Assembly (NCBI GenBank): GCA_039588275.1
Contig: JBDHAC010000069.1
Span: 1-18,036, forward strand
Length of the DNA stretch: 18,036 bases
DNA from: Gemmatimonadota bacterium
Lineage (GTDB): Bacteria > Gemmatimonadota > Gemmatimonadetes > Palauibacterales > Palauibacteraceae
Direction: 5' to 3'
This document shows positions 230 to 18,036 of this stretch, one piece after another; position 1 is the first letter of the stretch, and every line of letters starts with the position of its first letter. Below the pieces are notes generated by a model. The model saw only the letters and a list, made by a program, of their open reading frames with translations. It ran no database searches and was not told where the DNA came from. A program made the translations under genes and the position numbers.

Positions 230-853
230 TCAGTTCTTCAGCGGATCGATCCCCTTCCCCTCGAGGCATTCCCGCAGGCGGTTTCGAATTCGATACAGGA
301 TCACACCCAGGTTGGTGACGGTTACCCCCAGAATCTTACGGATCTCTTCCGTCGAGAGGCCCTCGACCTCGCGAAGTACGAACGCCATTCTCTGCTGAGT
401 TGGAGCGGCGTCGAGGCACTCCGAGATGGCGCCTCCGATTTCCTGGTCTTCGAAGTCGGCGTCCGCCGGCCGGGGCGGCCGGGCCCAGCCTCCGGCATGA
501 TCGAAGCGCGCCTCGAACACCTGGTCGATGTCATCCAGCTTTCGATCCCGATCCCGCGCCCGACGTTTCTCCGCGATCTTCTTGTATAGAATCCCGAACA
601 GCCACGTCCGCACGTGAGATCTACCCTCGAAGCGGGGAGCATTCTCGATGAAGGTCGTGAACGTCGCCTGTGTCACGTCCTCGGCCTGCTCTGGCGTCAG
701 ACCGGCGCCACGGGCGGCCCGCAGCACCTGGCCGAGGTACCTGCTCACGACGGCCCGAAGCGCGACAGGGTCACCGGCGCGAATCCTTTCCGGGTGCATG
801 GCATCGTCGTGACTCGGAGGAGTGGAGTCGTCGATCGAAGGTGCGGCGGACAT
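230..853 (-). CDS. ECF-family RNA polymerase sigma-70 factor
   Basis: Region 2 motif AEDVTQATF..RFEGRSHVRTWLFGIL and region 4 motif RMAFVLREVEGLSTEEIRKILGVTVTNLGVILYRIRNRLRECL. The start is uncertain (ATG at 895, 889, 853 or 799). Confidence 0.93.
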   Translation of the reverse strand: MSAAPSIDDSTPPSHDDAMHPERIRAGDPVALRAVVSRYLGQVLRAARGAGLTPEQAEDVTQATFTTFIENAPRFEGRSHVRTWLFGILYKKIAEKRRARDRDRKLDDIDQVFEARFDHAGGWARPPRPADADFEDQEIGGAISECLDAAPTQQRMAFVLREVEGLSTEEIRKILGVTVTNLGVILYRIRNRLRECLEGKGIDPLKN

Positions 854-930
854 GTCGGCCGTCAGGCCGGACTCGAGAGCGCGTCCCATGCTCACATAAG
901 GGCAGGCATCGGGTTCGGGTTCCCGCCTGC

Positions 931-1107: not shown

Positions 1108-1707
1108 ATGGATGCGACACACTCGAAGCGCCAGAATCATAGCAGACCACTAGCTGCATCTCGCTGGGTTCGGACCGCACTGGCGGTCGCCGTTTCCGCG
1201 TTCGGGATCGGTCTGACGACGGGGACGCTTTCCGCTGATGTCATCACTCCGATCGCTCAGTCAGGGGCAGCCGTGCCGATAGGGGCGGCCACGGGGAGCT
1301 CCGCTGACGACAACCTCCTCGAGGCCGCACGGGCAGAAGGAGGACTCTCTGCGTTCCTGGCGCTCGTCGATGCCGCCGAGCTGGGCAGGCTGTTGGAGAG
1401 CGACGGCCCCCTGACGGTCTTCGCTCCGCACAACGCGGCGTTCGCCACGGATCGGCTGTTGGGCAGACAGGACAGGGAAGATGTCCGCCGGCTCGTTCTT
1501 CGGCACGTGGTCCGCGGCAAGTACAACCTCGGTGACCTGGCCGAACGGGATCACGTGAACTCGATCGCCGAGGACCGGTCATTCACCGCACTCTCCGTCG
1601 AGCGCGTTGGGGAGCGGATCGTGATCGGAGGAGAGGCCTGGATCGTGGGTGAGAGCATCGAGACCCGAAACGGCGTCATTCACGTGATCAGCCGCGTACT
1701 GAGCTGA
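1108..1707 (+). CDS. Secreted fasciclin (FAS1) domain protein
   Basis: RBS AAGGAG just upstream; hydrophobic signal-like segment (ALAVAVSAFGIGL); FAS1 H1 motif GPLTVFAPHNAAF, central LRHVV, H2 motif TRNGVIHVISRVL. Confidence 0.9.
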   Translation: MDATHSKRQNHSRPLAASRWVRTALAVAVSAFGIGLTTGTLSADVITPIAQSGAAVPIGAATGSSADDNLLEAARAEGGLSAFLALVDAAELGRLLESDGPLTVFAPHNAAFATDRLLGRQDREDVRRLVLRHVVRGKYNLGDLAERDHVNSIAEDRSFTALSVERVGERIVIGGEAWIVGESIETRNGVIHVISRVLS

Positions 1708-2630: not shown

Positions 2631-3164
2631 ATGCGCGAGGAGGTGAAAGACCTGTGGCCCGAGCTGGAGTGGATCGGTAACGAGGAGTTACGCGAGTCGA
2701 CTCTAATGGCGTGGATGCGGGCCTTCGAGCACAGCCCGCTCACTCCTGCCGACCTCCAGAAGATCCCCTTCACTCTCTTGATCCCCAACTGCCCCGCGAC
2801 GTTCATGGAGCACAAGCGCTGCGTGGTCCACATCGCGCGGCGGTCGGCCGAAGCGATGCAGGAGTTCCTGGGTGGGCTTCTGACGATCGACATGGATGTG
2901 GTGATCGCAGGCGCGATCCTGGCCGATGTGGGCAAGCTGCTCGAGTACGAGATGGTCGGTAGCCGACTGGTGCAGAGCGACCGGGGGAAGGCGCTCCGAC
3001 ACCCGTTCACCGGAGTCCACCTGGCCATGGACTGCGGAGTGCCCGACCCCGTGTGTCACGTGATCGCCACGCACGCGGCGGAGGGAGACGTGGTCGACCG
3101 CAGCACCGAGGCGTGGATCGTCCATCACGCCGATTTCATGAGCTACGAGCCGTTCAAGACCTAG
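2631..3164 (+). CDS. HD/HDIG-family phosphohydrolase-like protein with degenerate HD motif (AD)
   Basis: RBS AGGAGA before ATG 2631. Motifs EH(KRCV), AGAILADVGKLLEY, RHPFTG, IATH and IVHHAD match the HD-fold spacing. Confidence 0.85.
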   Translation: MREEVKDLWPELEWIGNEELRESTLMAWMRAFEHSPLTPADLQKIPFTLLIPNCPATFMEHKRCVVHIARRSAEAMQEFLGGLLTIDMDVVIAGAILADVGKLLEYEMVGSRLVQSDRGKALRHPFTGVHLAMDCGVPDPVCHVIATHAAEGDVVDRSTEAWIVHHADFMSYEPFKT

Positions 3165-3222
3165 GATCGGGGACGCCCGGGACCAGGACAGCTATCGAAG
3201 GCTGGGAACGAGAGCCGAGACC

Positions 3223-4599
3223 ATGAACGAGACGATCACCGCCCGCATCTCACGCTGGGCCGCCGACCTCCAGTTCGATGACCTCACCGACGACGCCATC
3301 CGCGAGGCCAAGCGCTACCTGCTGGATTCGCTCGGGTGTGCCCTGGGAGGCTATCAGCAGCACGACGTGAAGCTCGCGCTCGGGGTCATGGACGAGGTCG
3401 GCGCCGAAGGGCCCGCAACGGTGATCGGCACCGGCAGACGCATGGACCCGGTGTCGGCCTCGCTGCTGAACGCGTTGATGGTCCGCGTCATGGACTACAA
3501 CGACATCTACTGGAAGCAGGATCCCTCACACCCATCGGACATTATCCCGGCGGCACTGGCTTGCGGCGAGCGCGCGGGCAAATCGGGCCGCGGCCTCATC
3601 GTCGGGATCGTACTCGGGCACGAGTTCGAGATGCGGCTGTGCGAGGCGGCGTTCCCCGGCATCCGCGAGCGCGGCTGGCACCACGCTACCCTGACGGCCT
3701 TCGTGTCACCTATGGTCGCCGCGAAGCTCCTCGATCTGGACTGGGAGCAGATGCAGCACGCCATCGGGATCTCCGGCTCACGGATGGCGACGCTGGGCGC
3801 CGTGACGGCCGGAAAGCTGACCATGATGAAGAACACGGTCGACCCGATGGCGACGCAGAGCGGGGTGCTGGCCGCCCTGCTCGCCGAGCGCGGCTACACG
3901 GGCCCTGAGCACGTGATCGACGGCAAGGAGGGGCTCGCGCACTGCATGGGTCCCGAATGGAAGCTCGAGCTGCTCGAGGACGGTCTGGGCGACGGCTTCC
4001 GGATCACCCAATGCGGCATGAAGGCATTCCCGACCGAGGCGCTCACGCACGCGCCGATCTCGTGCACGCTGGACCTGATCAAGGAGAACGACCTCGCGCC
4101 CGACCAGGTCGAGCAGGTGCACATCCGCTCGCTGGCCCGCGCGGCGGACATCCTGGCGGACCCGACCAAGTACGACCCGCGAACCAAGGAGACCGCGGAC
4201 CACAGCCTTCCGTACGTGATCGCGGCGGCGGTCGCCGAACGTCAGGTGACGCCTCTCCAGTTCACGGACGAGAAGATCATGGACCCCACGATCCGGGCTC
4301 AACTGAACAAAGTGGAAGTGGTCGCGGACCCCGAGATCGAGGCGCTCTTCCCCGAGCTGCAGCGCGTGATCGTGACGGTTCACACGATCGATGGTCGGGA
4401 GCTCACAAAACAGATCGACTACCCGAAGGGTGACCCCCGCAACCCGCTGACCGACGCCGAGATCGAGGAGAAGTTCGACGCGCTGGCCGAGCCGATCCTC
4501 GACGATGACCGACGGGGCCGGATCAAGGACGCCACCTGGGCCCTGGACGAGCTCGATTCGATCACGGGTCTAATGGAGCTTCTCGCGACGGACGCCTAA
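3223..4599 (+). CDS. prpD: MmgE/PrpD-family dehydratase (2-methylcitrate dehydratase-like)
   Basis: LLDSLGCALGG, RVMDYNDIY..SHPSD, GWHH, KAFPTE..TH, ETADHSLPY, PKGDPRNPL..EKF motifs; 458 aa. The substrate may not be methylcitrate. Confidence 0.9.
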   Translation: MNETITARISRWAADLQFDDLTDDAIREAKRYLLDSLGCALGGYQQHDVKLALGVMDEVGAEGPATVIGTGRRMDPVSASLLNALMVRVMDYNDIYWKQDPSHPSDIIPAALACGERAGKSGRGLIVGIVLGHEFEMRLCEAAFPGIRERGWHHATLTAFVSPMVAAKLLDLDWEQMQHAIGISGSRMATLGAVTAGKLTMMKNTVDPMATQSGVLAALLAERGYTGPEHVIDGKEGLAHCMGPEWKLELLEDGLGDGFRITQCGMKAFPTEALTHAPISCTLDLIKENDLAPDQVEQVHIRSLARAADILADPTKYDPRTKETADHSLPYVIAAAVAERQVTPLQFTDEKIMDPTIRAQLNKVEVVADPEIEALFPELQRVIVTVHTIDGRELTKQIDYPKGDPRNPLTDAEIEEKFDALAEPILDDDRRGRIKDATWALDELDSITGLMELLATDA

Positions 4600-4611
4600 C
4601 AGGAGGTCGTC

Positions 4612-6612
4612 ATGGGTCAGACCGTCATCGAGAAGATTGCCCAGCGGCACATGGCGGAGGGGCCTTCGCGACCCCTGGCGGCGGGCGACTACCTGTCGGT
4701 CCGCCCCCACCACGTGATGACGCACGACAACACGTCTCCGGTGATGGCGAAGTTCCGGGCTATCGGTGCCGAGCGCATCCACGATCCCCGGCAGCCCGTG
4801 TTTGCGCTGGATCACGACATCCAGAATCACTCGCCCGAGAACCTGGCCAAGTACGACGCGATCGAGGCGTTCGCGAAGGAGCAGGGCGTCGATTTCTACC
4901 CCGCCGGAACTGGCATCGGACATCAGGTGATGATCGAGGAGCAATACGTCGTGCCGGGCTCGTTCGTCGTCGCTTCCGACTCGCACTCCAACATGTACGG
5001 CGCGATGGGAGCGCTGGGGACACCGGTCGTGCGAACCGATGCCGCCGCGATCTGGGCCGCGGGCACGTTCTGGTGGCAGGTGCCGCGTACCGTGCTGGTG
5101 CACCTCGCCGGGCGTCTGCCCGCCAGCTCCACGGGGAAGGACGTGATCGTCACCCTGTGCGGTCTGTACAACGAAGGCGAGGTCCTGAACGCTGCGGTGG
5201 AGTTCCACGGACCGGGCGTGGCCGCCCTGTCGATGGAGGAGCGCCTCACGATCTCCAACATGACGACCGAATGGGGCGCCCTGGTCGGCTGGTTTCCGGC
5301 CGATGAGACCGCGCTCGAGTACGTGGACCGGCGCCGGATCGTGCTGGCCGAGCGTGGGGTGGCGCGCGTGAGCGAGGCACACATCGCCTCCTGGGAGAGC
5401 GCCCCGCTCGCGTCAGACACCGACGCAGGCTTCGCCGCGCGCATCGAGCTCGATCTCTCCGAGGTGACGCCGCACGTGTCCGGGCCCGATACGGTTCAGG
5501 TCGCCACGCCGATCGCCGAGATGGAAGCCCGGCGCGTGCCCATCCAGAAAGCCTATCTGGTTTCCTGCGTCAACTCGCGCGTCGAAGACATCGGACAGGC
5601 CGCCGATGTGATCCGCGGCCTCCAGGTCGCGGAGGGGGTCGAGTTCTACATGGCGGCGGCGAGCCGCGAGGTGCAGGAGGAATCGGAGCGAAGAGGTGAC
5701 TGGCAGGCGCTGCTCGACGCCGGTGCACGGCCGCTCCCCCCGGGCTGCGGTCCATGCATCGGCCTTGGTGCGGGGTTGCTGGAGCCGGGGGAGGTGGGGA
5801 TCTCCGCCACCAACCGGAACTTCAAGGGGCGCATGGGCTCGCGCGACGCCGAGTGCTACCTGGGCAGCCCGGCCGTGGTGGCGGCGTCGGCCGTCGCGGG
5901 CTTCATCACGGGGCCGGTCTCGGTAGAAGGCCGAGCGGAGGCTCGGGCACCGAGGCGCAGCTTCATCCGGCTCGGAACATCTACCGAGGACCCGAGCGCC
6001 GCGGGCCCGGCCACCGCGGACTCGACGGCCGCGGACGAGAAGATCGAAATCCTGGACGGATTCCCCGAGCGCATTCGAGGCCGCCTGGTCTTCCTCCCGC
6101 AGGACAACCTCAACACCGACGGCATCTACGGGAAGGACTACACGTACCGCGACGACATGACGCCCGAGATGATGGCCGAGGTCGTGTTCGAGAACTACGA
6201 CCCCGAGCTGGTCGGTATCGTCGGGGCAGGGGACGTGATCCTGGGCGGGTGGAACTTCGGCACCGGGTCCAGTCGCGAGCAGGCCGTGACTTCGCTCCAG
6301 GCCAAAGGGATCGCGCTGATCATCGCCGGCAGCTTCTCGCAGACGTATCTGCGCAACGCGTTCAACAACGGGTTCGCGTGCATCGCGTGTCCGGAGCTGG
6401 TCGCGCGCGTGCGTGCGCTGATGTCCGAGGAGGTCGCCTCAGGCGCGAGAACGATCGTGCCCGGTGACGAGCTGGAGGTGGATTTCGCGTCGAGCACGGT
6501 CACGTACCGGGCGGAGACGTTCGGCTTCCCCGCCTTGAGCGCGGTGCCGCAAGCGCTCGTTGTAGCCGGAGGCGTCGAAAACGAGGTGCGGCAACGGTTG
6601 GGACTCGACTGA
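4612..6612 (+). CDS. lysF: Single-chain homoaconitase (fungal LysF/Lys4-like aconitase-family hydratase)
   Basis: HHVMTHDN, LDHDIQN, FYPAGTGIGHQ, ASDSHSNMYG..LGTPVVRTDAA.IW..WWQVP; Fe-S Cys in VSCVNSR and GCGPCIG; SATNRNFKGRMGS; fused swivel domain DNLNTDGIY..NFGTGSSREQA. These motifs closely resemble the fungal homoaconitase sequences I recall. Confidence 0.85.
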   Translation: MGQTVIEKIAQRHMAEGPSRPLAAGDYLSVRPHHVMTHDNTSPVMAKFRAIGAERIHDPRQPVFALDHDIQNHSPENLAKYDAIEAFAKEQGVDFYPAGTGIGHQVMIEEQYVVPGSFVVASDSHSNMYGAMGALGTPVVRTDAAAIWAAGTFWWQVPRTVLVHLAGRLPASSTGKDVIVTLCGLYNEGEVLNAAVEFHGPGVAALSMEERLTISNMTTEWGALVGWFPADETALEYVDRRRIVLAERGVARVSEAHIASWESAPLASDTDAGFAARIELDLSEVTPHVSGPDTVQVATPIAEMEARRVPIQKAYLVSCVNSRVEDIGQAADVIRGLQVAEGVEFYMAAASREVQEESERRGDWQALLDAGARPLPPGCGPCIGLGAGLLEPGEVGISATNRNFKGRMGSRDAECYLGSPAVVAASAVAGFITGPVSVEGRAEARAPRRSFIRLGTSTEDPSAAGPATADSTAADEKIEILDGFPERIRGRLVFLPQDNLNTDGIYGKDYTYRDDMTPEMMAEVVFENYDPELVGIVGAGDVILGGWNFGTGSSREQAVTSLQAKGIALIIAGSFSQTYLRNAFNNGFACIACPELVARVRALMSEEVASGARTIVPGDELEVDFASSTVTYRAETFGFPALSAVPQALVVAGGVENEVRQRLGLD

Positions 6613-6689
6613 GGGGCGGCACTGACGGGCGGCCTCGGCCGCCCACGACCAACGTGAGAGGGACCGGACGAGGGTCCGGGTAACGAGCG

Positions 6690-7874
6690 ATGGCTCAATA
6701 CACCGTAGTGAGCATGCCCGGCGACGGAATCGGCCAGACCGTGCTTGAGGAAGCGATCCGGGTGCTCGGTGCCGTCGGCTTCGACGCCGAGTACGTGCAC
6801 GCCGACATCGGGTGGGAGTTTTGGATCCGGGACGGGAACGCCCTCCCTCAAGAGACCATCGACCTGCTCGCCGAGCACAAGCTAGGCCTGTTTGGAGCCA
6901 TCACCTCCAAGCCCAAGGACAAGGCTGCCGCCGAGCTGTCGCCCGAGCTCCAGGGACAGGGGTGCGTGTATTACAGCCCGATCGTCACCATGCGGCAGCT
7001 GTTCGACCTGAACGTCTGCATCCGGCCGTGCCGCTCGTTCCCGGGCAACCCGCTCAACTTCATCCGGCGCACCGCGGAAGGAGGCTTCGAGGAACCCGCT
7101 GTGGACGTGGTCATCTTCCGCCAGAACACTGAGGGTCTGTACGCCGGCATCGAGTGGACGAATCCTCCCTCTCACGTGCGCGACGCGCTCGCCACGCACC
7201 CCCGGTACAGGGCGTTCGCCGATGTGCCCGGAGAGGACCTGGCCATCAGCACGCGCGTGTTCACCCGGCACAATTGCCGGCGCATCGTGGGCGCCGCGTT
7301 CGCCTATGCTCAGAAGCACGGGTACGGCTCGGTCACCATCTGTGAGAAGCCGAACGTGCTGCGCGAGACCTCGGGGATGATGGAGGAGGTGGCGCGCGAG
7401 GTGAAGCAGGACTACCCCGGGATCGAGCACTGGTCGACCAACATTGACGCGCAGATGATGTGGCTGACCAAGAACCCCGAGGATTATGGGGTGGTGGTCG
7501 CCGGCAACATGTTCGGTGACATCGTCTCCGACGCGTTCGCGGGGCTCGTCGGAGGGCTCGGATTCGCCGCGTCGGGCAACATCGGCGACGAGGTCGCGGT
7601 GTTCGAGCCGACGCACGGCTCGGCGCCCAAGTACGCGGATCTCGACCCACCGATCGTCAACCCGATCGCCATGATCCTGACGGGTGCCATGCTGCTCGAC
7701 CACGTGGGCGAGACCGAGCGAGCCGGTCGCGTTCGCGATGCGGTTGCTGCCGTCGTGCACGAGGGGGAAGTCCGCTCGTACGACATGATGAAGCTCACGG
7801 GCGGCCCTGACGTGATCGCGAAGGGAGCCGCCAGCACACAGCAGATCACGGACGCCATCATCGAGAAGCTGTAG
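6690..7874 (+). CDS. Isocitrate/isopropylmalate/homoisocitrate dehydrogenase family (beta-decarboxylating dehydrogenase)
   Basis: PGDGIG, LFGAITS, YSPIVTMRQLFDL..IRP, FRQNTEGLY, EKPNV, NMFGDIVSD..GGLG, FEPTHGSAPKYA, NPIAMIL. Confidence 0.92.
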   Translation: MAQYTVVSMPGDGIGQTVLEEAIRVLGAVGFDAEYVHADIGWEFWIRDGNALPQETIDLLAEHKLGLFGAITSKPKDKAAAELSPELQGQGCVYYSPIVTMRQLFDLNVCIRPCRSFPGNPLNFIRRTAEGGFEEPAVDVVIFRQNTEGLYAGIEWTNPPSHVRDALATHPRYRAFADVPGEDLAISTRVFTRHNCRRIVGAAFAYAQKHGYGSVTICEKPNVLRETSGMMEEVAREVKQDYPGIEHWSTNIDAQMMWLTKNPEDYGVVVAGNMFGDIVSDAFAGLVGGLGFAASGNIGDEVAVFEPTHGSAPKYADLDPPIVNPIAMILTGAMLLDHVGETERAGRVRDAVAAVVHEGEVRSYDMMKLTGGPDVIAKGAASTQQITDAIIEKL

Positions 7875-7887
7875 TCGAGGATGAGAC

Positions 7888-9183
7888 ATGACTGACGCTG
7901 GCGACGAGGGCGAAGTGGCTGCCGGTATTCGCGGCGAGCTCCGGTATGCGGTCGGCGTGGCCGGACGTCGCGGGGAAGGGGTCCGCTCCGACACCTGGGT
8001 CTCGGTCGAGCCACGCCAAAGCGGCGGCATCGAGATAGATCTGAAATCGCGGGTGGAGCCCTACTACGGTGACGCGATTCGCCAGCAGATCACTGCACTC
8101 TTGGAGGGGCTGGGAGTCCGCGACGCACGGGTCGAGGTCGAGGACACCGGGGCGCTCCCGTTCGTAATTGCGGCGCGCGTAGAGACCGCGGTTCGGCGCG
8201 CAGGCATCGAACCGAGTGGAGACGGGCGACCCCCACTCGAGGTGGATCTCCCTCCGCCCTCGGCGCGGGACCGGCTGCGACGCTCCCGCCTCTACCTACC
8301 CGGGAACGAGCCCAAGTTCTTCATGAGCGCGGGTCTGTACGAACCGGATGGCATCATCCTGGACCTGGAAGACTCGGTTCACCCGGACGAGAAGGATGCG
8401 GCGCGGCTGCTCGTCCGGAATGCGTTGCGCACGGTCGACTTCCAGGCGGCCGAGCGAATGGTGCGCATCAACCAGCTCCCGCTCGGTCTCGAGGATCTCG
8501 ATGCCGTCGTGCCCGAGCGACCCGATCTCATCCTGATCCCCAAGACCGAGGCGGTGGAACAGGTCGAGGAAGTGGATGCGCGGGTGCTCGAGCTGCTCGG
8601 GTCGGAAGACCAGTCGGTTTGGCTGATGCCGATCCTCGAGACCGCGCTCGGCATCGAGCGTGCGTTCGACATCGGGCGCGCGAGCGAGCGCGTCGTCGCC
8701 CTCACGATCGGGTTGGAGGACTACGCCGCGGACCTCGGGGTGCCGCGCAGCGCCGACGGTGCGGAGTCGGCCTACGCGCGGAAGCGGTTGGTCAACGCGG
8801 CGAAAGCCGCCGGAGCCCAGGCGATCGACTCGGTCTACGGACAAGTCGACGATCTGGACGGCCTCAGGGAATGGGGAGAGCGCGGCCGCCGGCTCGGATT
8901 CGAGGGCATGGGGTGCGTGCACCCACGCCAGATCCCGGTGATCCACGAGGCGTTCGCACCCTCGTCAGCCGAGATCGAGCGGTCCCGGAAGATCGTCGAA
9001 GCCTTCGAGGCGGCTCAGGCGGAGGGCCTCGGTGTGGTCAGCCTCGGGTCCAAGATGATCGATCCACCAGTCGTCGAGCAGGCGCTCCGGGTCGTGGAGC
9101 GCGCGCGGGCGGCCGGGCTCGTACCGGGCGGGGATTCTGAGGCCCCGCCGACCGACGAACGCGCGGAGGACGCCGGATTATGA
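7888..9183 (+). CDS. citE: Fusion of citrate lyase gamma (ACP, CitD-like) and beta (citryl-CoA lyase, CitE-like) subunits
   Basis: N-terminal ~100 aa CitD-like (RSD.WV.VEP..GIEIDLKSRV..YGDAIRQ..EDTGAL..IAARVETAVRRA). The remainder is HpcH/CitE-like: RRSRLYLPGN, LDLEDSV, VRIN, LETALG, GLEDY, HPRQI, MIDPPV. Confidence 0.9.
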   Translation: MTDAGDEGEVAAGIRGELRYAVGVAGRRGEGVRSDTWVSVEPRQSGGIEIDLKSRVEPYYGDAIRQQITALLEGLGVRDARVEVEDTGALPFVIAARVETAVRRAGIEPSGDGRPPLEVDLPPPSARDRLRRSRLYLPGNEPKFFMSAGLYEPDGIILDLEDSVHPDEKDAARLLVRNALRTVDFQAAERMVRINQLPLGLEDLDAVVPERPDLILIPKTEAVEQVEEVDARVLELLGSEDQSVWLMPILETALGIERAFDIGRASERVVALTIGLEDYAADLGVPRSADGAESAYARKRLVNAAKAAGAQAIDSVYGQVDDLDGLREWGERGRRLGFEGMGCVHPRQIPVIHEAFAPSSAEIERSRKIVEAFEAAQAEGLGVVSLGSKMIDPPVVEQALRVVERARAAGLVPGGDSEAPPTDERAEDAGL

Positions 9184-10745
9184 GCAAGTACGGCGATCTC
9201 GTGACCAACGCGGTCGGCCGGCCGGCACCGGTCGAGGTGAACGACCTCCCCCAAACGCCCTTCCAGGGAGTGGGCGCCTACCCACCGGACGGAGTGAAGG
9301 CCGCCCCGCCGGTCCGAAGCTGCAGGGACTTTCCGACCGATGGCGACAAGCGTGTCGAGAGCCTGGCGGAAGCCTTCGAGCGTTGTGGGCTCAGCGACGG
9401 GATGGTGATCTCCACGCACCACCACCTGCGGAACGGGGACTACGTGGCGCTGCTCGCATTGAGGGCGGCGGCGAAGGTGGGCGTCGAGGATCTCATGTGG
9501 TTCCCGAGCGCCTCCTTCCCCTGTCACGAGCCCGTGATCGAGCTCATGGAGCGGGGGGTCGTGCACCACATCGAAGGAAGCATGAACGGTCCGTTGGGCG
9601 ACTACTGCTCTCACGGCCACATGCGTGGCATGGGGGTGTTGCGATCGCATGGCGGTCGCTGGCAAGCGATCCAGGACGGCGAGGTCCACATCGACATCGC
9701 CGTGATCGCCGCTCCGACCGCGGACCCGTTCGGGAACGCTGACGGCTCACATGGCCCGTCGGCTTGCGGCTCGCTGGGGTTCGCGCTCGCCGACTCCATG
9801 TACGCCGATCATGTGATCGTCGTGACGGACAACCTCGTCCCGTTCCCTTGCATCCCGTGGCAGATCCACGGCAACCACGTCGACCACGTGGTCGAGGTTG
9901 ATTCCATCGGTGATCCGTCCCTGATCGTGTCGGGCACGACGCAGATCACGCGAAGCCCCGAGCGCCAGATGATCGCCCGCAACGTCGCGACCCTGCTCCG
10001 GGATGCCGGGATCATGCGCGACGGGTTCTCGTTTCAGGCCGGGGCAGGGGGCATCGCGCTCGCGTTCGTCGGCTACCTGGCCGACATGATGCGCGACGCG
10101 GGCGTGACCGCCTCGTTCGTGCGCGGCGGCTCGACGCGGTATCTGGTGGAGCTCCTGGAGGAGGGGCTGACCGGCTACATTCTGGATGGCCAGACGTTCG
10201 ACCTGGATGGCGTCCGGTCGATCGCCGAGAACCCGCGGCACGTCGCCACCTCGCCTTTCACGTCGTACAACTTCCACGGGAAGGGCAACTTCGCCTCGAT
10301 GGTCGATGCAGTGGTGCTCGGAGCCACCGAGGTCGACGTGAACTTCAACGGAAACGTGGTCACCCACTCCGACGGCCGGCTGCTGCATGGGATCGGCGGG
10401 TGGCAGAACTGCCTGTTCTCCGGGTGCACCGTCCTCGCCGTCCCCTCGTTCCGCGACCGGATTCCGGTGATCGTCGACGAGGTGACCACGATCACCGGTC
10501 CCGGTGAGCTAATCGACGTGGTAGCCACCGAGCGCGGCATCGCGATCAACCCCCGCCGTCAGGACTTGAGGGATGCCCTCCAGGGCTCGGACCTGCCGAT
10601 CCGACCGATCGAGGAGATTCGGGACGAAGTGGAGCGCATCTGCGGCGGGAAGCCCGCCAAACCCCGCCTCACCGACGAGCCCGTCGCCGCCATCAAATGG
10701 GTCGACGGGACGGTCATCGACACCGTGTTCAGGGTGGGGGATTGA
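9180..10745 (+). CDS. citF: Citrate lyase alpha subunit / citrate CoA-transferase (CitF-like)
   Basis: ISTHHHLRNGD, LRSHGGR, ACGSLGFA..D, SFQAGAGG, LGATEVDVNFNGNVVTHSDG, DVVATERGIAINPRR, DGTVIDTV; ATGA overlap with the upstream stop. Confidence 0.92.
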   Translation: MSKYGDLVTNAVGRPAPVEVNDLPQTPFQGVGAYPPDGVKAAPPVRSCRDFPTDGDKRVESLAEAFERCGLSDGMVISTHHHLRNGDYVALLALRAAAKVGVEDLMWFPSASFPCHEPVIELMERGVVHHIEGSMNGPLGDYCSHGHMRGMGVLRSHGGRWQAIQDGEVHIDIAVIAAPTADPFGNADGSHGPSACGSLGFALADSMYADHVIVVTDNLVPFPCIPWQIHGNHVDHVVEVDSIGDPSLIVSGTTQITRSPERQMIARNVATLLRDAGIMRDGFSFQAGAGGIALAFVGYLADMMRDAGVTASFVRGGSTRYLVELLEEGLTGYILDGQTFDLDGVRSIAENPRHVATSPFTSYNFHGKGNFASMVDAVVLGATEVDVNFNGNVVTHSDGRLLHGIGGWQNCLFSGCTVLAVPSFRDRIPVIVDEVTTITGPGELIDVVATERGIAINPRRQDLRDALQGSDLPIRPIEEIRDEVERICGGKPAKPRLTDEPVAAIKWVDGTVIDTVFRVGD

Positions 10746-10820: not shown

Positions 10821-12971
10821 TCAGGGTGGGTCTGGCGGACCAGACGCCGACGGCCGCAGTTCAGGGCCGCCCGGGATCACGGAATTCGCGCCGGCGGGAC
10901 GATTGATCCGGCGGGTCAACGAGTTGCTCTTGTTGTTGGCCGCGTCCCAGATAGTCACCGTCTCGTCTACCCAAGTGGTCCCGGCAAAGAGGATGCAAAC
11001 ATTCGTAGCCGTGATCGTGCCGGAGAAACCGTCCCCGGTGAACTGGTAGTTCAGGCCGCCGGCCGTTCCCGAGGTTCCGTCGCTGAAGGCGTACTTCACC
11101 TCGATCGTGGTCCCGCTAGGAGTGACATCTCCATCCGGGTCGCTGTAGTCCCATTCGAACTCGAAGTGACTGCCGGGCGGGCTCTGATGGCCACAGAACT
11201 GGGCCGCGTTCAGTTGGATTAGCTTCGTCTGGAAGTTCGAGATGGTCGGCGCGACGGAACCTGGGCAGTCGACGTCGAAGGTGGTCTGCGCGGTTTGACC
11301 GGAGATGACGGTGACGTTGCGCGGGTTGGTTCCGTTGATGACGGAGCAGTTGGACGCGAGTCCCGTGAGCTGGACGGAGTGGCTGCCCGGCGTGAGCTGT
11401 GTGAACGTGACGGTTGCGTTGTTGCCGATCGACTGGCTCAGGCTGCCGTCGACGGTGACGGTGTACCCGTCGGGATCGGGGTTCGAACCGGTCGTGCTCG
11501 TGCTCACCTGAAGATCACCAGGGGGCGTCTGGCAATTGACGTCGAAGGTGGTCTGCACGGTTTGACCGGAGATGACTGTGACGTTGCGCGGGTTGGATCC
11601 GTTGACGACGGTGCAGGTAGCCGCGATCCCCGTGAGCTGGACGGAGTGGCTGCCCGGCGTGAGCTGTGTGAAAGTGACGGTTGCGTTGTTGCCGATAGAC
11701 TGGCTCAGGCTGCCGTCGACGGTGACGGTGTACCCGTCGGGATCGCCGTTCGCCGGGGTGGTAATCGTGGTCACCTGGAGGTCGCCAGGGGTGGTTGGGC
11801 AGTCGACGTCGAAGGTGGTCTGCGCGGCCTGACCGGCTGTGACGGTGACGTCCCGCGGGTTGGAGCCGTTGATGACGCGGCAGTTGGACGCGAGCCCCGA
11901 GAGCCGAACGGTGTGGGTGCCCTCGGACAGCCCCGTGAAGGTGACCGTGGCGTTGTTGCCGATCGACTGGCTCTGGCTGCCGTCGACCCTGACGGTGTAG
12001 CCGTCAGGATCGGGCGCGCCTCCGGTAGTGCGGGTTCGTACGCTCAGGTCGCCCGTCTGAGCGGCGACCTGACAGTTGACGTCGAAGCGGACGGAGCTGG
12101 TGGTGTTACTGCTGACGGACGCGGTCTGCGGGTTCTGGCTGATCACCGCGCAGGTGGGGGCTACGCCCTGGAGCTCGACGGAGTAGTCACCTGGGGCCAG
12201 GTTTGTGAAGTCGACCTGGCCGTTGACGGCGAGCGCTTTGCTCTTGCGGCCGCTCACGACCACGGTGTACCCGTCGGGGTCCGGGGTGCCGGTGGTCGTG
12301 TTCGAGATGCGGATGGCGCCCGGCCGCGGAGCGGGCGGCGGCGGCGGCTCGCTCGGCGTCACCGGGTCCATCGTGAGCGTATAGCCGCCCGTGGCGGAGG
12401 CGTCGAAGCCCGAGACGACCACCAGGTAACCCACGCCAGGCCGGATCGTGGTCAGGATCCGCGGATTGGGATCGGTCGGGGAACGATCGTCGTTGGAGCC
12501 CAGTAGGGTCAGCGTCTCAGCGCGCCCGGCTTGCGAGCTGCGCACGAGAGGGCCAACACCGCCCGGGTCCACCGAGGCCGACTGGGGCGCGATGACCTGG
12601 AACAGGGCCATGGCGGCGTCGAACCCGGCACTGGCCGTGAAATCGACCTGCTGGTCGCGGTCGGTCTCCAGGTAGAGGCTCTCGAAGAACCCGGTGCTCT
12701 GCGGATTGGTCTCGAGCACCTCGGGTACATCGGACACCTTGCAGTCCTGCTGCGAGGAGATCGAGCTCGAGTTCTGTTGCTGGGTGGAAGCGAGCATGCG
12801 GGCGAGCTCGGAGAGCGCGCACATCGTCTGCTGCGTCTCGTCGCTGAGCGGCGGTACGTTCTCCGGGGGCGGTGGAGGAGGCGGGGGTGGAGGCTGCGTC
12901 GTCCCCTCCCCGCCGCATTGCGCCAACGACACCAACAGACCGAGTACCAGAACGCGGCGGAAGTGCCTCAT
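10821..12971 (-). CDS. Large predicted lipoprotein: polyproline linker, PPC-like domain, four ~85-aa beta repeats and an uncharacterised C-terminal domain
   Basis: ATG 12971 after GAGGTG; MRHFRRVLVLGLLVSLAQ-C lipobox-like signal; ten-Pro tract; SNDD..GYLVVVSGF..TGGYTL (pre-peptidase C-terminal-like); repeats containing DPDGYTV. Confidence 0.85.
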   Translation of the reverse strand: MRHFRRVLVLGLLVSLAQCGGEGTTQPPPPPPPPPPENVPPLSDETQQTMCALSELARMLASTQQQNSSSISSQQDCKVSDVPEVLETNPQSTGFFESLYLETDRDQQVDFTASAGFDAAMALFQVIAPQSASVDPGGVGPLVRSSQAGRAETLTLLGSNDDRSPTDPNPRILTTIRPGVGYLVVVSGFDASATGGYTLTMDPVTPSEPPPPPAPRPGAIRISNTTTGTPDPDGYTVVVSGRKSKALAVNGQVDFTNLAPGDYSVELQGVAPTCAVISQNPQTASVSSNTTSSVRFDVNCQVAAQTGDLSVRTRTTGGAPDPDGYTVRVDGSQSQSIGNNATVTFTGLSEGTHTVRLSGLASNCRVINGSNPRDVTVTAGQAAQTTFDVDCPTTPGDLQVTTITTPANGDPDGYTVTVDGSLSQSIGNNATVTFTQLTPGSHSVQLTGIAATCTVVNGSNPRNVTVISGQTVQTTFDVNCQTPPGDLQVSTSTTGSNPDPDGYTVTVDGSLSQSIGNNATVTFTQLTPGSHSVQLTGLASNCSVINGTNPRNVTVISGQTAQTTFDVDCPGSVAPTISNFQTKLIQLNAAQFCGHQSPPGSHFEFEWDYSDPDGDVTPSGTTIEVKYAFSDGTSGTAGGLNYQFTGDGFSGTITATNVCILFAGTTWVDETVTIWDAANNKSNSLTRRINRPAGANSVIPGGPELRPSASGPPDPP
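11265..12320 (-). repeat. Four tandem intragenic repeats (~255-nt units, 267-nt period)
   Basis: Units at about 12072-12320, 11799-12053, 11532-11786 and 11265-11519. Consensus GDL.V.T.TTG..PDPDGYTV.VDG..SQSIGNNATVTFT.L..G.H.V.L.G.A..C.V.NG.NPR.VTV..GQT.QTTFDV.C, with two Cys per unit. Confidence 0.92.
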
Positions 12972-13410
12972 TCCAATCACCTCGTCGTCGGCCGGGTCGA
13001 TCCGCATACCGTCCCCCACGGCCACCCCGGGGTGCAGTCCGGCCGACCCTAAAATGTATGAAGCCGGTTAAGGGATATCCAGACCAGAAATACCTTTGAT
13101 GTGTCAGCCAGTCACGTATTCTGGAATAAATGAAGGGGGGAGAACCAGGTCGACCGTCGGCCCATATGCATGTAGGTTTTTGCGTTAACGTAGACGCTCA
13201 GCCCGAGCGGTATGGCCGCGTCCGGGACGATCTGAACCGCGATATGAGCAGAGGCCCGATCCCAATCTCTTGGGGTGCGATCGATCCCGGTCACGTGAGG
13301 GCCGACGGGCTGGACCGAGCTGGGGTTGAGGGCGGCTGGAGACTCAGATTCGGCAGGTCTGACGGCTGGCCACCGATACGTCACCGCTCGGCAAAGTCTT
13401 GGAGGATCGC

Positions 13411-14973
13411 GTGACTCCGACGAGGGACTCCCCCCACCGAATCACGGCGATACAGGTTCAGATTGCCGGCCGGCCCGAGACGCGCGAGTTCGATCGCTCT
13501 TTCAGCATCGGGCGCGGGCCGGAGAACGACCTCGTGATAGATGATGATCTGGTCAGCGTGCGGCATGTGGAGGTCCTGCGCGTCCAGGACGAGTGGCAGA
13601 TTCATGATCTGGGCAGCACGAACGGGACTCTGGTCGGAGGGAGGCGAATAGACCGAGTCCCCGTGCGCGGTCCGATCGAGTTGCGGCTCGTCCACGTCAA
13701 CGGCCCGTGTCTCGTCCTTACGCCCATCGAGGTTCGCAGCAAACCCGAGGACACCGTCGCGGCAGGGGCGTCTGACAGCCGGATCGCCGATCGTTATTTC
13801 GGCAGCGAGACCCCCGTGGACATGAGCGACCACACCGCCATGGTGCGCCAGGTCGTGAAACGGCAGCGGCGGAAACAGTCCAAGCATTACCGAATCGCCC
13901 TCGGAGTGCTGGCAGTGGTGGCAGTGGCCGTCGGGGGATTCGCGTATCGGCAACGTCATGAAGTCGAGCAGCAGCGAGCCGCCGCGGCGGAGTTGTTCTA
14001 CACGACGAAGGCGCTCGAGCTGGAGGTCCGGCGCCTACAGCTCAGTGCGGGGGAACAAGAGTCTTATCGAGAGCGCCGCGCCGAGCTCGAGCAGCGGTAC
14101 CGGGACTTCGTTGAAGCCCTCGGCATCTACGGCGACGACACGGGCGAAGAAGTCCAGCTCATCTACCGCATCACCCACCGGTTTGGTGAGTCGGAGGTAA
14201 ACGTCCCGCGCGAGTTCGTGGACGAGGTGCTCCGCTATATCGAACGCTGGCAACGCTCAAACGATCTGAACACGGCTATCGATCGCGCGAGACAAAACGA
14301 CTACGGCCGTCGGATCGCGGCGATCATGGGGGAGCATGACCTGCCACCCGAGTTCTTCTATCTCGCCCTTCAGGAGAGCGCGTTCAAGGTGGATGCCGTT
14401 GGTCCGCCGACACGGCTGGGGTTCGCCAAGGGAATGTGGCAGTTCATCCCCGGAACCGGGCGGGAATATGGGCTCCAGCCCGGCCCGCTCGTAGGGCAAT
14501 CGAGGCCTGATCCACTGGACGAGCGACACGATTTCGAGAAGTCGACTCGCGCCGCCGCCCGCTACCTGCGCGACCTATACACGACGGACGCGCAGGCATC
14601 CGGCCTGCTGGTCATCGCGTCGTACAACTGGGGAGAAGCCCGGGTGTTGAGGCTCATCCGATCGATGGGGGAGAGCCCTCGGGAGCGCAATTTTTGGAAT
14701 CTGCTCACGCTTTACGGCGACCGCATTCCTCAGCAGACGTACGATTACGTGTACCGCATCGTCGCGGCGGCGGTGATCGGCGAGAACCCCGGTCTCTTCG
14801 GTTTCGACTTCGAGCCGCCGTTGCCACCGAGTGGCAGCGTCGCGACCCGGGTAGAGTCCAGGAGTGGGGCATCCGTGGCCTCGGCGCGAGCGGGCTCGGC
14901 TCTGGATACACCGCTTTCAGGAAGTGCGGCCCGGGGACACTCTCTGGACCATTTCGGATCGATTCTTCGGTAA
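13411..14973 (+). CDS. FHA domain - transmembrane helix - coiled coil - MltD-like lytic transglycosylase (SLT)
   Basis: GTG after GGAGGA. FHA motif IGRGPENDLVI..VSVRH..DLGSTNGT; TM segment IALGVLAVVAVAVGGFAY; SLT motifs LALQESAF, GMWQFIPGTG, DERHD..STRAAARYL, ASYNWGE. Confidence 0.9.
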   Translation: MTPTRDSPHRITAIQVQIAGRPETREFDRSFSIGRGPENDLVIDDDLVSVRHVEVLRVQDEWQIHDLGSTNGTLVGGRRIDRVPVRGPIELRLVHVNGPCLVLTPIEVRSKPEDTVAAGASDSRIADRYFGSETPVDMSDHTAMVRQVVKRQRRKQSKHYRIALGVLAVVAVAVGGFAYRQRHEVEQQRAAAAELFYTTKALELEVRRLQLSAGEQESYRERRAELEQRYRDFVEALGIYGDDTGEEVQLIYRITHRFGESEVNVPREFVDEVLRYIERWQRSNDLNTAIDRARQNDYGRRIAAIMGEHDLPPEFFYLALQESAFKVDAVGPPTRLGFAKGMWQFIPGTGREYGLQPGPLVGQSRPDPLDERHDFEKSTRAAARYLRDLYTTDAQASGLLVIASYNWGEARVLRLIRSMGESPRERNFWNLLTLYGDRIPQQTYDYVYRIVAAAVIGENPGLFGFDFEPPLPPSGSVATRVESRSGASVASARAGSALDTPLSGSAARGHSLDHFGSILR

Positions 14974-16061: not shown

Positions 16062-18036
16062 TCAACGTGGGTCCGGCGGACCCGCGCCACCTCCTCGCGG
16101 CTCTGATAGCGTCGGTAGTTCGCGGGGTCCTACGGAGGCAGCACCCGCGGGTTTGGGGATTGTCCACGTCACCGCATCCCCGGGGTTACCAGCCTGGTCC
16201 ACCACCGTGAGGGTAACGTCGACCTGCGACCAGCTGCCGAAAATGATGCAGTTGTCGGCGGTCACGGTGCCGCTGAAGCCGTCGCCGGTGGTCGTGTTGT
16301 TAGCGCTGGTGCTCACGTAGGCGTCCCAGCGGTCACTTGATCCTCCATTGTTGAACCTGAGCTTGACGCGGACCCGCACGGTGCTGGAGTTCACGTCGCC
16401 GTCACTGTCTGAGTAATCAACCGTATACTGGATCCGATTGTAGCTCGGAATCCCGCATTGGCCGTACGGCAGTATGAACTGATGCTGGGGATTGCTGATC
16501 ATTGGAGCAGAGGGCGATATAGGCTGGAACACCGCGGTCACAGTCTCGTCCTGGTTGATATTGAATTCGCATATCTCTCCCTCCGCCGCAATGCTGGGGC
16601 ACGGTGAGCTCCAGCTTGCGAGGAAGTCCGTACCCGTGGGCGCGGGCCAAAGCTGCAAGAACCTGCCCTGTACAAATGTCGATTGGCACGCACCGCTGGT
16701 AGAGGTCCCGTTGATCGTGCAGTCGATGCCTGGCCAGTTTGATTTCACAGTGCCATCACCGGTCCCACCGCCCGTCACAGTGAGACTGAACCCGGGCGGG
16801 GCGTCGAACTGTGCGGTGACGCTCCGGGGCTGGTCCATGGTGACGGTGCAGGACCCCGTCCCGGTACAGTCTCCGCTCCAGCCGCCGAAGGTGTCCGACC
16901 CGCTCGGGTTCTGGATGAGAGTGACGCTCGTGCCGGCCGTGTAGAACAGGCTGCACGTGCCGCTCGTCGAGCCCGACGAGATCGTGCAGCTGATCCCCTG
17001 ACCGCTCACGGTCCCCGATCCCGTCCCAGCCGTGACCGTGCACGAGCTGCCGGTGCAGTCGCCGCTCCAGCCGGTGAAGGTGCTCTGCTGGCCGGGACTC
17101 GAGGTCGGTGTGGCGCTGAGGCTGACCTGCGTACCCTGTGCGAACGTCGTGCTGCACGTGCCGCCGGCGGCGCTCCCGTCGGTGATCGTGCAGTTGATCC
17201 CAGCGGGGCTCGACGTGACGACGCCGTCCCCGTCGCCGCTCCCGGATACGGAGAGCGAGAAAGAGCCGGGCGCATCGAACTGTGCGGTGACGCTCCGAGG
17301 CTGACTCAGGGTGACGGTGCAGGATCCCGTCCCGGTGCAGTCTCCACTCCAGCCCGCGAAGGTGTCCGACCCGCTCGCGGCCGCGTTCAGGGTGACGTTA
17401 GTACCCGCCGTGTAGAACAGGCTGCAGGTGCCGCTGGTCGAGCCCGCGGTGATCGTGCAGTTGAGCCCCTGACCGGTCACCGTCCCCGACCCGTTGCCCG
17501 CTCCATTCACGACGAGCTCGAACTCCTGCTGGAACGAGGCGGTGACGGAGCGGGCCTGGTCCATGGTCACCGTGCACGAGCTGCCGGTGCAGTCCCCGCT
17601 CCACCCGGTGAAGGTGCTCTGCTGGCCCGCGCTCGAGGTCGGTGAGGCGGTAAGCGTGACCTGCGTCCCTTGCGTGAACGTCGTGCTGCAGGTGCCGCCC
17701 GCGGCGCTCCCATCGGTGATCGTGCAGTCGATCCCCGCTGGGCTCGACGTGACAACGCCGTCCCCGTCGCCGCCCCCTGAGACGGTGAGCGAGAAGGAGC
17801 CGGGAGCATCGAACTGTGCGGTGACGCTACGTGGCTGACTCAGGGTGACGGAGCAGGATCCCGTCCCGGTGCAGTCTCCACTCCAGCCTGCGAAGGTGTC
17901 CGACCCGCTCGCGGTCGCGTTCAGAGTGACGCTCGTGCCGGCCGTGTAGAACAGGCTGCACGTGCCGCTCGTCGAGCCCGACGAGATCGTGCAGCTGATC
18001 CCCTGACCGCTCACGGTCCCCGATCCCGTCCCAGCC
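16062..18036 (-). CDS. Large repeat protein, probably extracellular, with InlB-B-like/Ig-like Cys-containing repeats and an uncharacterised C-terminal domain; 5' end outside the window
   Basis: Frame open to the window edge; repeats G.G.GTV..GI.CTI..TCS..GT.VTL.A..F.GWSGDC..CTVT...RSVTA.F. Confidence 0.88.
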   Translation of the reverse strand, partial: AGTGSGTVSGQGISCTISSGSTSGTCSLFYTAGTSVTLNATASGSDTFAGWSGDCTGTGSCSVTLSQPRSVTAQFDAPGSFSLTVSGGGDGDGVVTSSPAGIDCTITDGSAAGGTCSTTFTQGTQVTLTASPTSSAGQQSTFTGWSGDCTGSSCTVTMDQARSVTASFQQEFELVVNGAGNGSGTVTGQGLNCTITAGSTSGTCSLFYTAGTNVTLNAAASGSDTFAGWSGDCTGTGSCTVTLSQPRSVTAQFDAPGSFSLSVSGSGDGDGVVTSSPAGINCTITDGSAAGGTCSTTFAQGTQVSLSATPTSSPGQQSTFTGWSGDCTGSSCTVTAGTGSGTVSGQGISCTISSGSTSGTCSLFYTAGTSVTLIQNPSGSDTFGGWSGDCTGTGSCTVTMDQPRSVTAQFDAPPGFSLTVTGGGTGDGTVKSNWPGIDCTINGTSTSGACQSTFVQGRFLQLWPAPTGTDFLASWSSPCPSIAAEGEICEFNINQDETVTAVFQPISPSAPMISNPQHQFILPYGQCGIPSYNRIQYTVDYSDSDGDVNSSTVRVRVKLRFNNGGSSDRWDAYVSTSANNTTTGDGFSGTVTADNCIIFGSWSQVDVTLTVVDQAGNPGDAVTWTIPKPAGAASVGPRELPTLSEPRGGGAGPPDPR
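16520..18036 (-). repeat. Alternating A/B intragenic repeat array (A-B-A-B'-A-C)
   Basis: A+B period is 534 nt (e.g. 17941 vs 17407); the next period is 471 nt. Positions 16918-17031 are identical to 17923-18036. Confidence 0.9.

Follow-up and report, generated by a model that had tools for sequence, protein, structure and literature searches.

A conserved six-gene bacterial operon and a possible carrier-less route from 2-oxoadipate to 2-oxoglutarate and acetate

The window analyzed here is a stretch of 18,036 nt, contig JBDHAC010000069.1 (GCA_039588275.1), from a Gemmatimonadota bacterium of the Palauibacteraceae whose genome is 86% complete. Between positions 2631 and 10745 it carries a six-gene operon that is a real, conserved pathway, in which members of known enzyme families are combined in a new way. 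With regard to function, we tentatively favor, at a little under even confidence, a self-contained, carrier-less, coenzyme A (CoA)-dependent route that would consume 2-oxoadipate, a lysine breakdown product; the substrate series is quite probably that of homocitrate (C7). Gene content and conservation, family membership, loss of a carrier serine and of maturation genes, residue fingerprints, and exchanges of whole modules were observed directly. The six genes are as follows.

2631 to 3164, forward strand: HD-fold protein, 177 amino acids (weak match to TIGR00277; an in-frame ATG also lies upstream at 2568)
3223 to 4599, forward strand: MmgE/PrpD-family enzyme, 458 amino acids (PF03972 and PF19305), proposed (de)hydratase between (S)-homocitrate and cis-homoaconitate
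4612 to 6612, forward strand: single-chain Lys4/LysF-type homoaconitase, 666 amino acids (TIGR00139), proposed to interconvert homoisocitrate and cis-homoaconitate
6690 to 7874, forward strand: β-decarboxylating dehydrogenase, 394 amino acids (PF00180, Iso_dh), proposed to interconvert 2-oxoadipate plus CO2 and homoisocitrate
7888 to 9183, forward strand: CitD-like domain fused to a CitE-type acyl-CoA C–C lyase, 431 amino acids (TIGR01608 and TIGR01588), proposed to split homocitryl-CoA into acetyl-CoA and 2-oxoglutarate
9180 to 10745, forward strand: CitF-type CoA-transferase, 521 amino acids (PF04223 and TIGR01584), proposed acetyl-CoA:homocitrate CoA-transferase that releases acetate

Intergenic gaps are 58, 12, 77, 13, and −4 nt, the last being an ATGA overlap, in agreement with a preliminary description of the window as holding six co-oriented, closely spaced genes with one such overlap. 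A promoter and terminator scan returned no promoters and two terminator-like sites, no excess over shuffled sequences.

For analysis of conservation, the homoaconitase was used to search a genome collection, where it matched 232 stretches, the 80 best loci being carried forward; in metagenomes, a distant homologue served as the query, and 80 loci of 575 were kept. The full six-gene order was found in 61 of the 80 genome loci, across Gemmatimonadota, Acidobacteriota, and Eisenbacteria, which bears out the earlier view that the cluster is no chance assembly. Among the remaining 19, 16 stop no more than ∼640 nt past the last gene found, one (L016) is ambiguous, and two (L018 and L073) truly lack a part. 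The closest relatives are Gemmatimonadota genomes, at 84–86% identity. Four gene orders were seen among the 27 of 80 metagenome loci that also contain all six genes, and two low-GC metagenome loci were assigned to Ignavibacteria by cluster names. Because the genes are kept together through rearrangement across phyla, the operon is taken to be one functional unit. Its occurrence is patchy: of 250 other Gemmatimonadota, 12 carry the operon type of CitF, and of 151 Terriglobales, 21 carry the dehydrogenase (the former counts include unpublished genomes G094, G134, and G219, and the latter unpublished genomes G298, G308, G310, G312, G316, G320, and G366). The plasmid collection held no close homoaconitase (best 37%), and CitF proteins at 40–45% only; a look through RNA runs yielded no carrier. 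No seventh gene is fixed, and no conserved transporter or uptake gene was found around the operon in these loci; a short-chain dehydrogenase/reductase-family cluster occurs in 23 of the 80 genome loci. In 37 of 80 loci, a gene for a 155-amino acid protein (e.g. L023:7501-7968), which has no NCBIfam match at 1e-20 and is presumably DinB-like, lies between the PrpD-family and hydratase genes.

The most firmly assigned member is the hydratase, which scored 718.6 on TIGR00139 (cut-off 529.9), shares 54% identity with a fungal LysF-type protein (P0123, itself scoring 1357), and has Cys319, Cys379, and Cys382. In a tree restricted to 22 of 57 rows, from which long-branch, fragmentary, and near-duplicate rows had been dropped, it formed a clade (support 100/100) with four eukaryote-type Lys4 rows, two of them labeled from contig content and one named Amoeboaphelidium; the fungal-type homoaconitase announced from the sequence was therefore recovered by both model and phylogeny. 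Nesting of fungal Lys4 within the operon hydratases was suggested by this tree (90/95) and by a quick tree but is not established (approximately unbiased test, p 0.23), and a bacterial origin for fungal Lys4 becomes testable. According to the available text of PMC3556520, fungal homoaconitases interconvert homoaconitate and homoisocitrate only and require a second enzyme, which would explain a dedicated PrpD-family partner in the operon.

The PrpD-family protein fits this second-hydratase slot by family, although the name PrpD given to it earlier holds only at the level of the MmgE/PrpD family. Its identity to Escherichia coli PrpD is just 23%, with H103 aligned to PrpD H112, and it scored 87.9 against a PrpD cut-off of 575 and 65–88 bits across models with cut-offs of 458–950; its best matches in the PDB are IDS epimerase and IRG1-like proteins. 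The operon copy is the sole PrpD-family gene found in the source genome, where PrpB was not found, save for a 28% isocitrate lyase (ICL)-like match. (R)-Homocitrate is the form handled by homocitrate synthase and aconitase, a pro-3S lyase takes the acetyl arm from the face corresponding to (S)-homocitrate, and in a citrate synthase-type product it is the acyl-CoA-derived arm that PrpD dehydrates. PrpD dehydration is a syn elimination, as stated in the available part of PMC3556520. On stereochemical grounds, the PrpD-family enzyme probably links cis-homoaconitate to the CitE-type lyase via (S)-homocitrate, and because it would be the natural link between the two, AcnA of the host would not be used.

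For the dehydrogenase, the N-terminal half is closest to Thermus thermophilus homoisocitrate dehydrogenase (HICDH), with a loop ∼10 residues longer; this loop may resemble that of fungal Lys12. Residues S96, I98, and V99 align with positions 113, 115, and 116 of E. coli isocitrate dehydrogenase (IDH). Ile occupies position 98 in 121 of 127 rows (five gaps and one Val), so that the isocitrate-specific Asn115 is replaced and Ser113 is kept; the two IDH-like enzymes of the source genome carry Asn at that position. At the cofactor site, a Lys–Tyr pair (K314 in 111 of the 127 rows and Y315 in 112, with 14 gaps) matches the source genome's NADP-IDH and differs from the Asp–Ile of T. thermophilus HICDH. 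The fingerprint thus looks NADP-type, and of the earlier assignment as HICDH the IDH-family dehydrogenase stands but the typical NAD-type HICDH does not. Use of NADPH would favor carboxylation, not decisively.

The lyase module resembles citrate lyase in its parts. The CitD domain passed TIGR01608 (65.2 against a cut-off of 63.5), whereas CitE (263 against 443 on TIGR01588) and CitF (485.5 against 501.45 on TIGR01584; PF04223 found) fell below their cut-offs; CitF is 39% identical to E. coli CitF, and CitF, CitE, and the CitD-like domain together span 33–39% identity to their E. coli counterparts. Of 69 genome loci, 68 have CitD and CitE as a fusion. The column of CitD Ser14, which we take to be the attachment site of the prosthetic group, holds Arg in 106 of 108 rows (one Lys and one gap), and reference CitD proteins from E. 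coli, E. faecium, and F. vincentii have Ser there; the adjacent Ser15 is shared by 104 of 108 rows and two of these references. Thirty-four CitF columns that are invariant in three true CitF proteins are fixed otherwise in the operon CitF family. The products of citC, citX, and citG make, attach, and prime the citrate lyase prosthetic group, as described in the available part of PMC2996986. Among operon genomes, CitG was found in one of 40 and CitX and CitC each in none of five; none of the three was found in the 160 loci. Judged by its sequence, the module is not a canonical citrate lyase; since the defining carrier serine is replaced and the maturation genes are absent, the lyase probably works on free CoA esters without a covalent carrier.

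In two metagenome loci, L148 and L152, the place of CitDEF is taken by a citryl-CoA lyase that passes its cut-off, paired with an ADP-forming CoA ligase resembling SucC/SucD, by family a cleavage module of the reductive tricarboxylic acid (TCA) cycle type. Because two alternative modules fill the lyase slot, the tricarboxylate made by the operon would need CoA-ester activation and retro-aldol cleavage. Separately, a Cupriavidus CitF-like gene (L116:6995-8560) has no CitD or intact CitE directly alongside, and its neighbors by eye are apparent tricarboxylate-binding, MaoC-type, and CoA-transferase genes.

A CitF and CitE–CitD fusion in Ignavibacterium album (IALB_1146/1147) has been interpreted as an ATP-independent citrate lyase, possibly of the reverse TCA cycle (PMC3362086, available part), and its architecture and taxon fit the operon family. 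Extended to the whole operon, this would give a reductive citrate arm, in which 2-oxoglutarate and CO2 yield isocitrate, then citrate, and finally oxaloacetate and acetate. The NADP fingerprint, the retained Ser113, and the passing of citryl-CoA lyase models by the variant lyase are compatible with such an arm, as is the activity of Aspergillus fumigatus LysF with citrate and isocitrate (0.99 and 1.88, against 7.5 U/mg), which counts against our preferred reading; yeast Lys4 is almost inactive toward the citrate series (both from the available part of PMC3556520). We consider the citrate arm decidedly unlikely. Ile stands in place of Asn115 in 121 of the 122 rows with a residue, CitE lies far below its equivalog, and the source genome encodes GltA, a second citrate synthase, AcnA, and NADP-IDH elsewhere, of which the last two would make two extra hydratases redundant. 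Loss of Asn115, this separate TCA set, and the lack of PrpB together make plain citrate or methylcitrate metabolism unlikely.

The HD-fold protein is the fixed sixth member of the pathway, its gene being present in 69 of the 80 genome loci and retained, with those for the dehydrogenase, PrpD-family enzyme, and hydratase, in the ligase variant L148. Its score on TIGR00277 (HDIG) was 27 bits against a cut-off of 27.6. An AlphaFold model (pLDDT 92.7) matched the YhaM HD domain best (Z 16.0, the next match being 10.5; root mean square deviation 2.9, 159 residues aligned, 20% identity), and ESM Atlas matches were to HD-family clusters only. In the HD motif, Ala takes the place of His (Ala–Asp consensus), so that the His–Asp metal dyad is not intact; all 38 rows compared share H61, D99, H124, H148, and D168. 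As a guess, it may be a metal-dependent hydrolase for a side product, e.g. homocitrate lactone. A role as editor of the prosthetic group was discarded, because there is no carrier serine and the HD protein stays in the ligase variant.

Taken in the direction that we favor, the pathway would run in five steps, for which substrates, stereochemistry, direction, and physiological role are all predicted from sequence comparison. The NADP-type dehydrogenase would reductively carboxylate 2-oxoadipate to homoisocitrate, which the Lys4-type hydratase would convert to cis-homoaconitate. Hydration by the PrpD-family enzyme would then give homocitrate, probably the (S)-form cleavable by a pro-3S CitE-type lyase. 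CitF would transfer CoA from acetyl-CoA to homocitrate, freeing acetate, and the CitE domain would split homocitryl-CoA into 2-oxoglutarate and acetyl-CoA, the latter being thereby regenerated. The net reaction would be 2-oxoadipate + CO2 + NADPH to 2-oxoglutarate + acetate, independent of O2. The claim in full, namely an undescribed and widespread O2-independent, CO2-consuming route from 2-oxoadipate via (S)-homocitrate, with a carrier-less lyase, NADPH-driven carboxylation, a new HD activity, and a hydratase from the bacterial stock of fungal Lys4, is more doubtful and is put forward as a conjecture. In the preliminary description, a homocitrate route encoded as one unit had been proposed; a conserved unit with a lyase module, most likely acting on the C7 series, was recovered. 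That description had passed over the replaced carrier serine with its absent maturation enzymes, the NADP-type look of the dehydrogenase, and the constant presence of the HD protein. The CO2-consuming catabolism of 2-oxoadipate named there as one option ranks best among the readings considered, with its substrate and direction still conjectural.

Several points weigh against this favored reading. All steps of the route lie near equilibrium, so that module content leaves the direction unfixed, and NADP-type IDHs usually run oxidatively. No equivalog was passed by the dehydrogenase (best AksF2, 263 against 540), the HICDH models available being archaeal and a fungal Lys12 model not being among those listed. 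In 17 of the 80 metagenome loci, the hydratase occurs without any of its five window partners in the DNA covered, a set that takes in the ligase variant L152 and some eukaryote-looking contigs. At L139, a second aconitase-family enzyme occupies the PrpD slot, which weakens a strict (S)-homocitrate argument. Finally, since SucA, glutaryl-CoA dehydrogenase (GCDH), and an ICL-family gene are present in the source genome, the route is not obviously needed there.

Genomic links to lysine breakdown were also examined. The source genome encodes a lysine 6-aminotransferase over its cut-off, an aminoadipate-semialdehyde-dehydrogenase-like protein, and a saccharopine-dehydrogenase-family protein. A GCDH-like gene (52–62% identical to that of the source genome) occurs in four of the 160 loci, against a rough chance expectation of less than one; in three of these, L005, L121, and L160, which differ in gene order, it is co-oriented with and adjoins the operon, and a PDB comparison of the L005 protein gave GCDH as its closest match. 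Among Terriglobales, GCDH is found in 20 of 21 genomes with the operon dehydrogenase and in 75 of 130 without, and PF16653 (saccharopine/lysine-dehydrogenase family) in 13 of 21 and 7 of 130, respectively; a single PF16653 protein was checked, and its closest match is Pyrococcus PH1688, which we take to be a lysine dehydrogenase. Against these links, the GCDH neighborhood is rare and its adjacency is equally consistent with the opposite direction, and the Fisher p of 5e-9 for PF16653 is overstated because kin are not independent. The lysine aminotransferase passes in 18 of 52 operon genomes and in none of 151 Terriglobales, and 8 of 21 operon-bearing Terriglobales have neither lysine entry enzyme at the thresholds used. 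In Gemmatimonadota, the saccharopine-dehydrogenase family was uninformative as a marker, being present in 197 of 251 genomes, with the operon CitF in 13. The lysine aminotransferase was dropped as a universal partner on account of its absence from the 151 Terriglobales, and a lack of the glyoxylate shunt in carriers was also dropped, the ICL family being present in four of five operon genomes.

The same residue and family evidence would serve for the opposite direction, in which acetate or acetyl-CoA and 2-oxoglutarate would give homocitrate, homoisocitrate, and finally 2-oxoadipate, CO2, and NADPH. The 2-oxoadipate could then pass through glutaryl-CoA to acetyl-CoA, as an NADPH-yielding bypass of 2-oxoglutarate, or to some other product. 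Oxidative running is normal for NADP-type IDHs, the GCDH gene (adjoining in three loci, near in a fourth, and enriched in operon-bearing Terriglobales) would have an obvious place, and no lysine entry enzyme would be needed, as some carriers seem to be without one. We regard this direction as unlikely. Two lyase modules were found and never a synthase, and an irreversible synthase is the usual driver of such a pathway; SucA is, moreover, already encoded in the source genome. The equilibrium between homocitrate and homoisocitrate also lies far on the homocitrate side (PMC3556520, available part).

Biosynthesis had been the other option of the preliminary description: an upper α-aminoadipate pathway to lysine, with a reversed lyase replacing homocitrate synthase. 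The absence of that synthase was confirmed within the scope covered, none being present in the 160 loci (searched with one DRE-TIM query) and no protein of 52 operon genomes passing the fungal/archaeal model TIGR02146; a NifV-type model was checked against the source genome's protein only. The biosynthetic role itself was not upheld and is very improbable. Neither LysW nor LysX passed its cut-off in any of 40 operon genomes, and LysA passed in 34 of them, the source genome included. Orthology of the hydratase to Lys4 would suit it, as would weak LysW-like matches (TIGR01206) in 30 of the 40 genomes, nearly all Acidobacteriota and none with LysX over cut-off, and the report of I. album as lacking lysC, asd, and dapABD (PMC3362086, available part). 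The two LysW-like genes inspected (L090:1462-1833 and L093:1459-1653, both on the reverse strand) are isolated and encode stand-alone zinc-ribbon proteins with acidic tails and no terminal carrier Glu. As to a fungal-type lower pathway, saccharopine-dehydrogenase-family genes occur, and Lys2 was not searched for.

A DRE-TIM protein does occur in the source genome, with a best score of 184 bits, below the isopropylmalate synthase, homocitrate synthase, and CimA cut-offs. Its gene lies close to GCDH-like and NAD-type IDH-like genes on one strand (L081:4559-9740, G000:C7), and it is possibly a Re-citrate synthase. It was rejected as an operon-specific synthase, because it is present in four of five operon-negative relatives.

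A series other than C7 was also considered, namely homo2- or homo3-citrate or an alkyl-substituted citrate of plant or microbial origin. PrpD, the dehydrogenase, CitE, and CitF all lie below their equivalog cut-offs, the dehydrogenase has its longer loop, IDS epimerase and IRG1-like proteins are closer to the PrpD-family protein than PrpD itself, and the HD protein lacks an explanation, all of which would suit an unfamiliar substrate. Such a series appears rather unlikely, given a hydratase within the Lys4 clade, the lack of a conserved transporter or uptake gene around the operon, and the GCDH and lysine-dehydrogenase links, which indicate C6/C7 compounds.

When compared with known systems, the operon shares features with each of five. 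It resembles the fungal and Thermus upper α-aminoadipate pathway (PMC3556520, available part) in its Lys4-clade hydratase, two-enzyme isomerization, and dehydrogenase without Asn115, but it has no synthase, a PrpD-family enzyme in place of aconitase, a lyase module, and an NADP-type rather than NAD-type fingerprint, and its hosts have LysA and not LysW or LysX. With the CitDEF and CitC/CitX/CitG citrate lyase of E. coli, Enterococcus, and Geobacter bemidjiensis, it shares CitF, CitE, and a CitD-like domain; it differs in the CitD–CitE fusion, the change of Ser14 to Arg, the near-complete absence of maturation genes, and the linkage to a hydratase pair and dehydrogenase, with no conserved citrate transporter or oxaloacetate decarboxylase in the loci. 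Carboxylation, isomerization, CoA activation, and retro-aldol cleavage are common to the citrate-cleaving arm of the reductive TCA cycle, and L148 and L152 share its ligase and lyase type, whereas the operon pathway is probably one carbon longer, would use CoA transfer and not ATP for activation, and sits in hosts with a separate, ordinary TCA set. As in the 2-methylcitrate cycle (PrpC, PrpD, aconitase, and PrpB), one isomerization is shared between a PrpD-family and an aconitase-family enzyme; the operon departs from it in the low identity to PrpD and the lack of PrpB noted above. A decarboxylating dehydrogenase is, in addition, unable to oxidize the tertiary alcohol of 2-methylisocitrate.

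The fifth system is HglS, a single Fe(II)/O2-dependent enzyme that converts 2-oxoadipate to D-2-hydroxyglutarate with release of CO2 (available part of bioRxiv 10.1101/2020.01.30.927905). Both routes would tie 2-oxoadipate to the C5 pool, but the one proposed here would be O2-independent and would take up CO2; HglS was found in none of five operon genomes. In the literature covered, from which most subscription papers and supplements fall outside, no description of the operon or of a homocitrate lyase or cleavage was found, and the available parts of PMC9560492, PMC3534657, and PMC4302243 held nothing further on the operon. If correct, the favored reading would add a route to central carbon metabolism in abundant, mostly uncultured bacteria of soil, peat, and sediment (Acidobacteriota, Gemmatimonadota, Ignavibacteria, and Eisenbacteria), through which lysine carbon would reach 2-oxoglutarate without O2 and with CO2 uptake. 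It would also imply new activities, i.e. a homocitryl-CoA lyase, a homocitrate CoA-transferase, an (S)-homocitrate hydratase, and an NADPH-linked 2-oxoadipate carboxylase, which would be useful in C6/C7 pathway engineering, and annotations as citrate lyase, reverse TCA cycle, or lysine biosynthesis would need correcting.

Other genes of related families were seen in the source genome. An aconitase-family open reading frame of up to 851 amino acids (L086:3200-7293, G000:C6), with a C-terminal LeuC-like domain, lies 3′ of a DASS-family transporter gene and passed no equivalog. Genes resembling isopropylmalate dehydrogenase or tartrate dehydrogenase are present at L082:5129-6196 and L084:5055-6164, and canonical LeuA and LeuC were not found in that genome.

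Elsewhere in the window, an extracytoplasmic function sigma factor (230 to 895, reverse strand), a fasciclin protein (1108 to 1707, forward strand), and a short Cys-rich frame that ends at 2305 and matches no family lie upstream of the operon. Downstream, 10821 to 13025 and 16062 to 18035, on the reverse strand, encode long, repeat-rich, probably secreted proteins with similar C-terminal tails, and 13399 to 14973 encodes a 524-amino acid protein in which a forkhead-associated (FHA) domain is fused to a lytic transglycosylase (SLT) domain.

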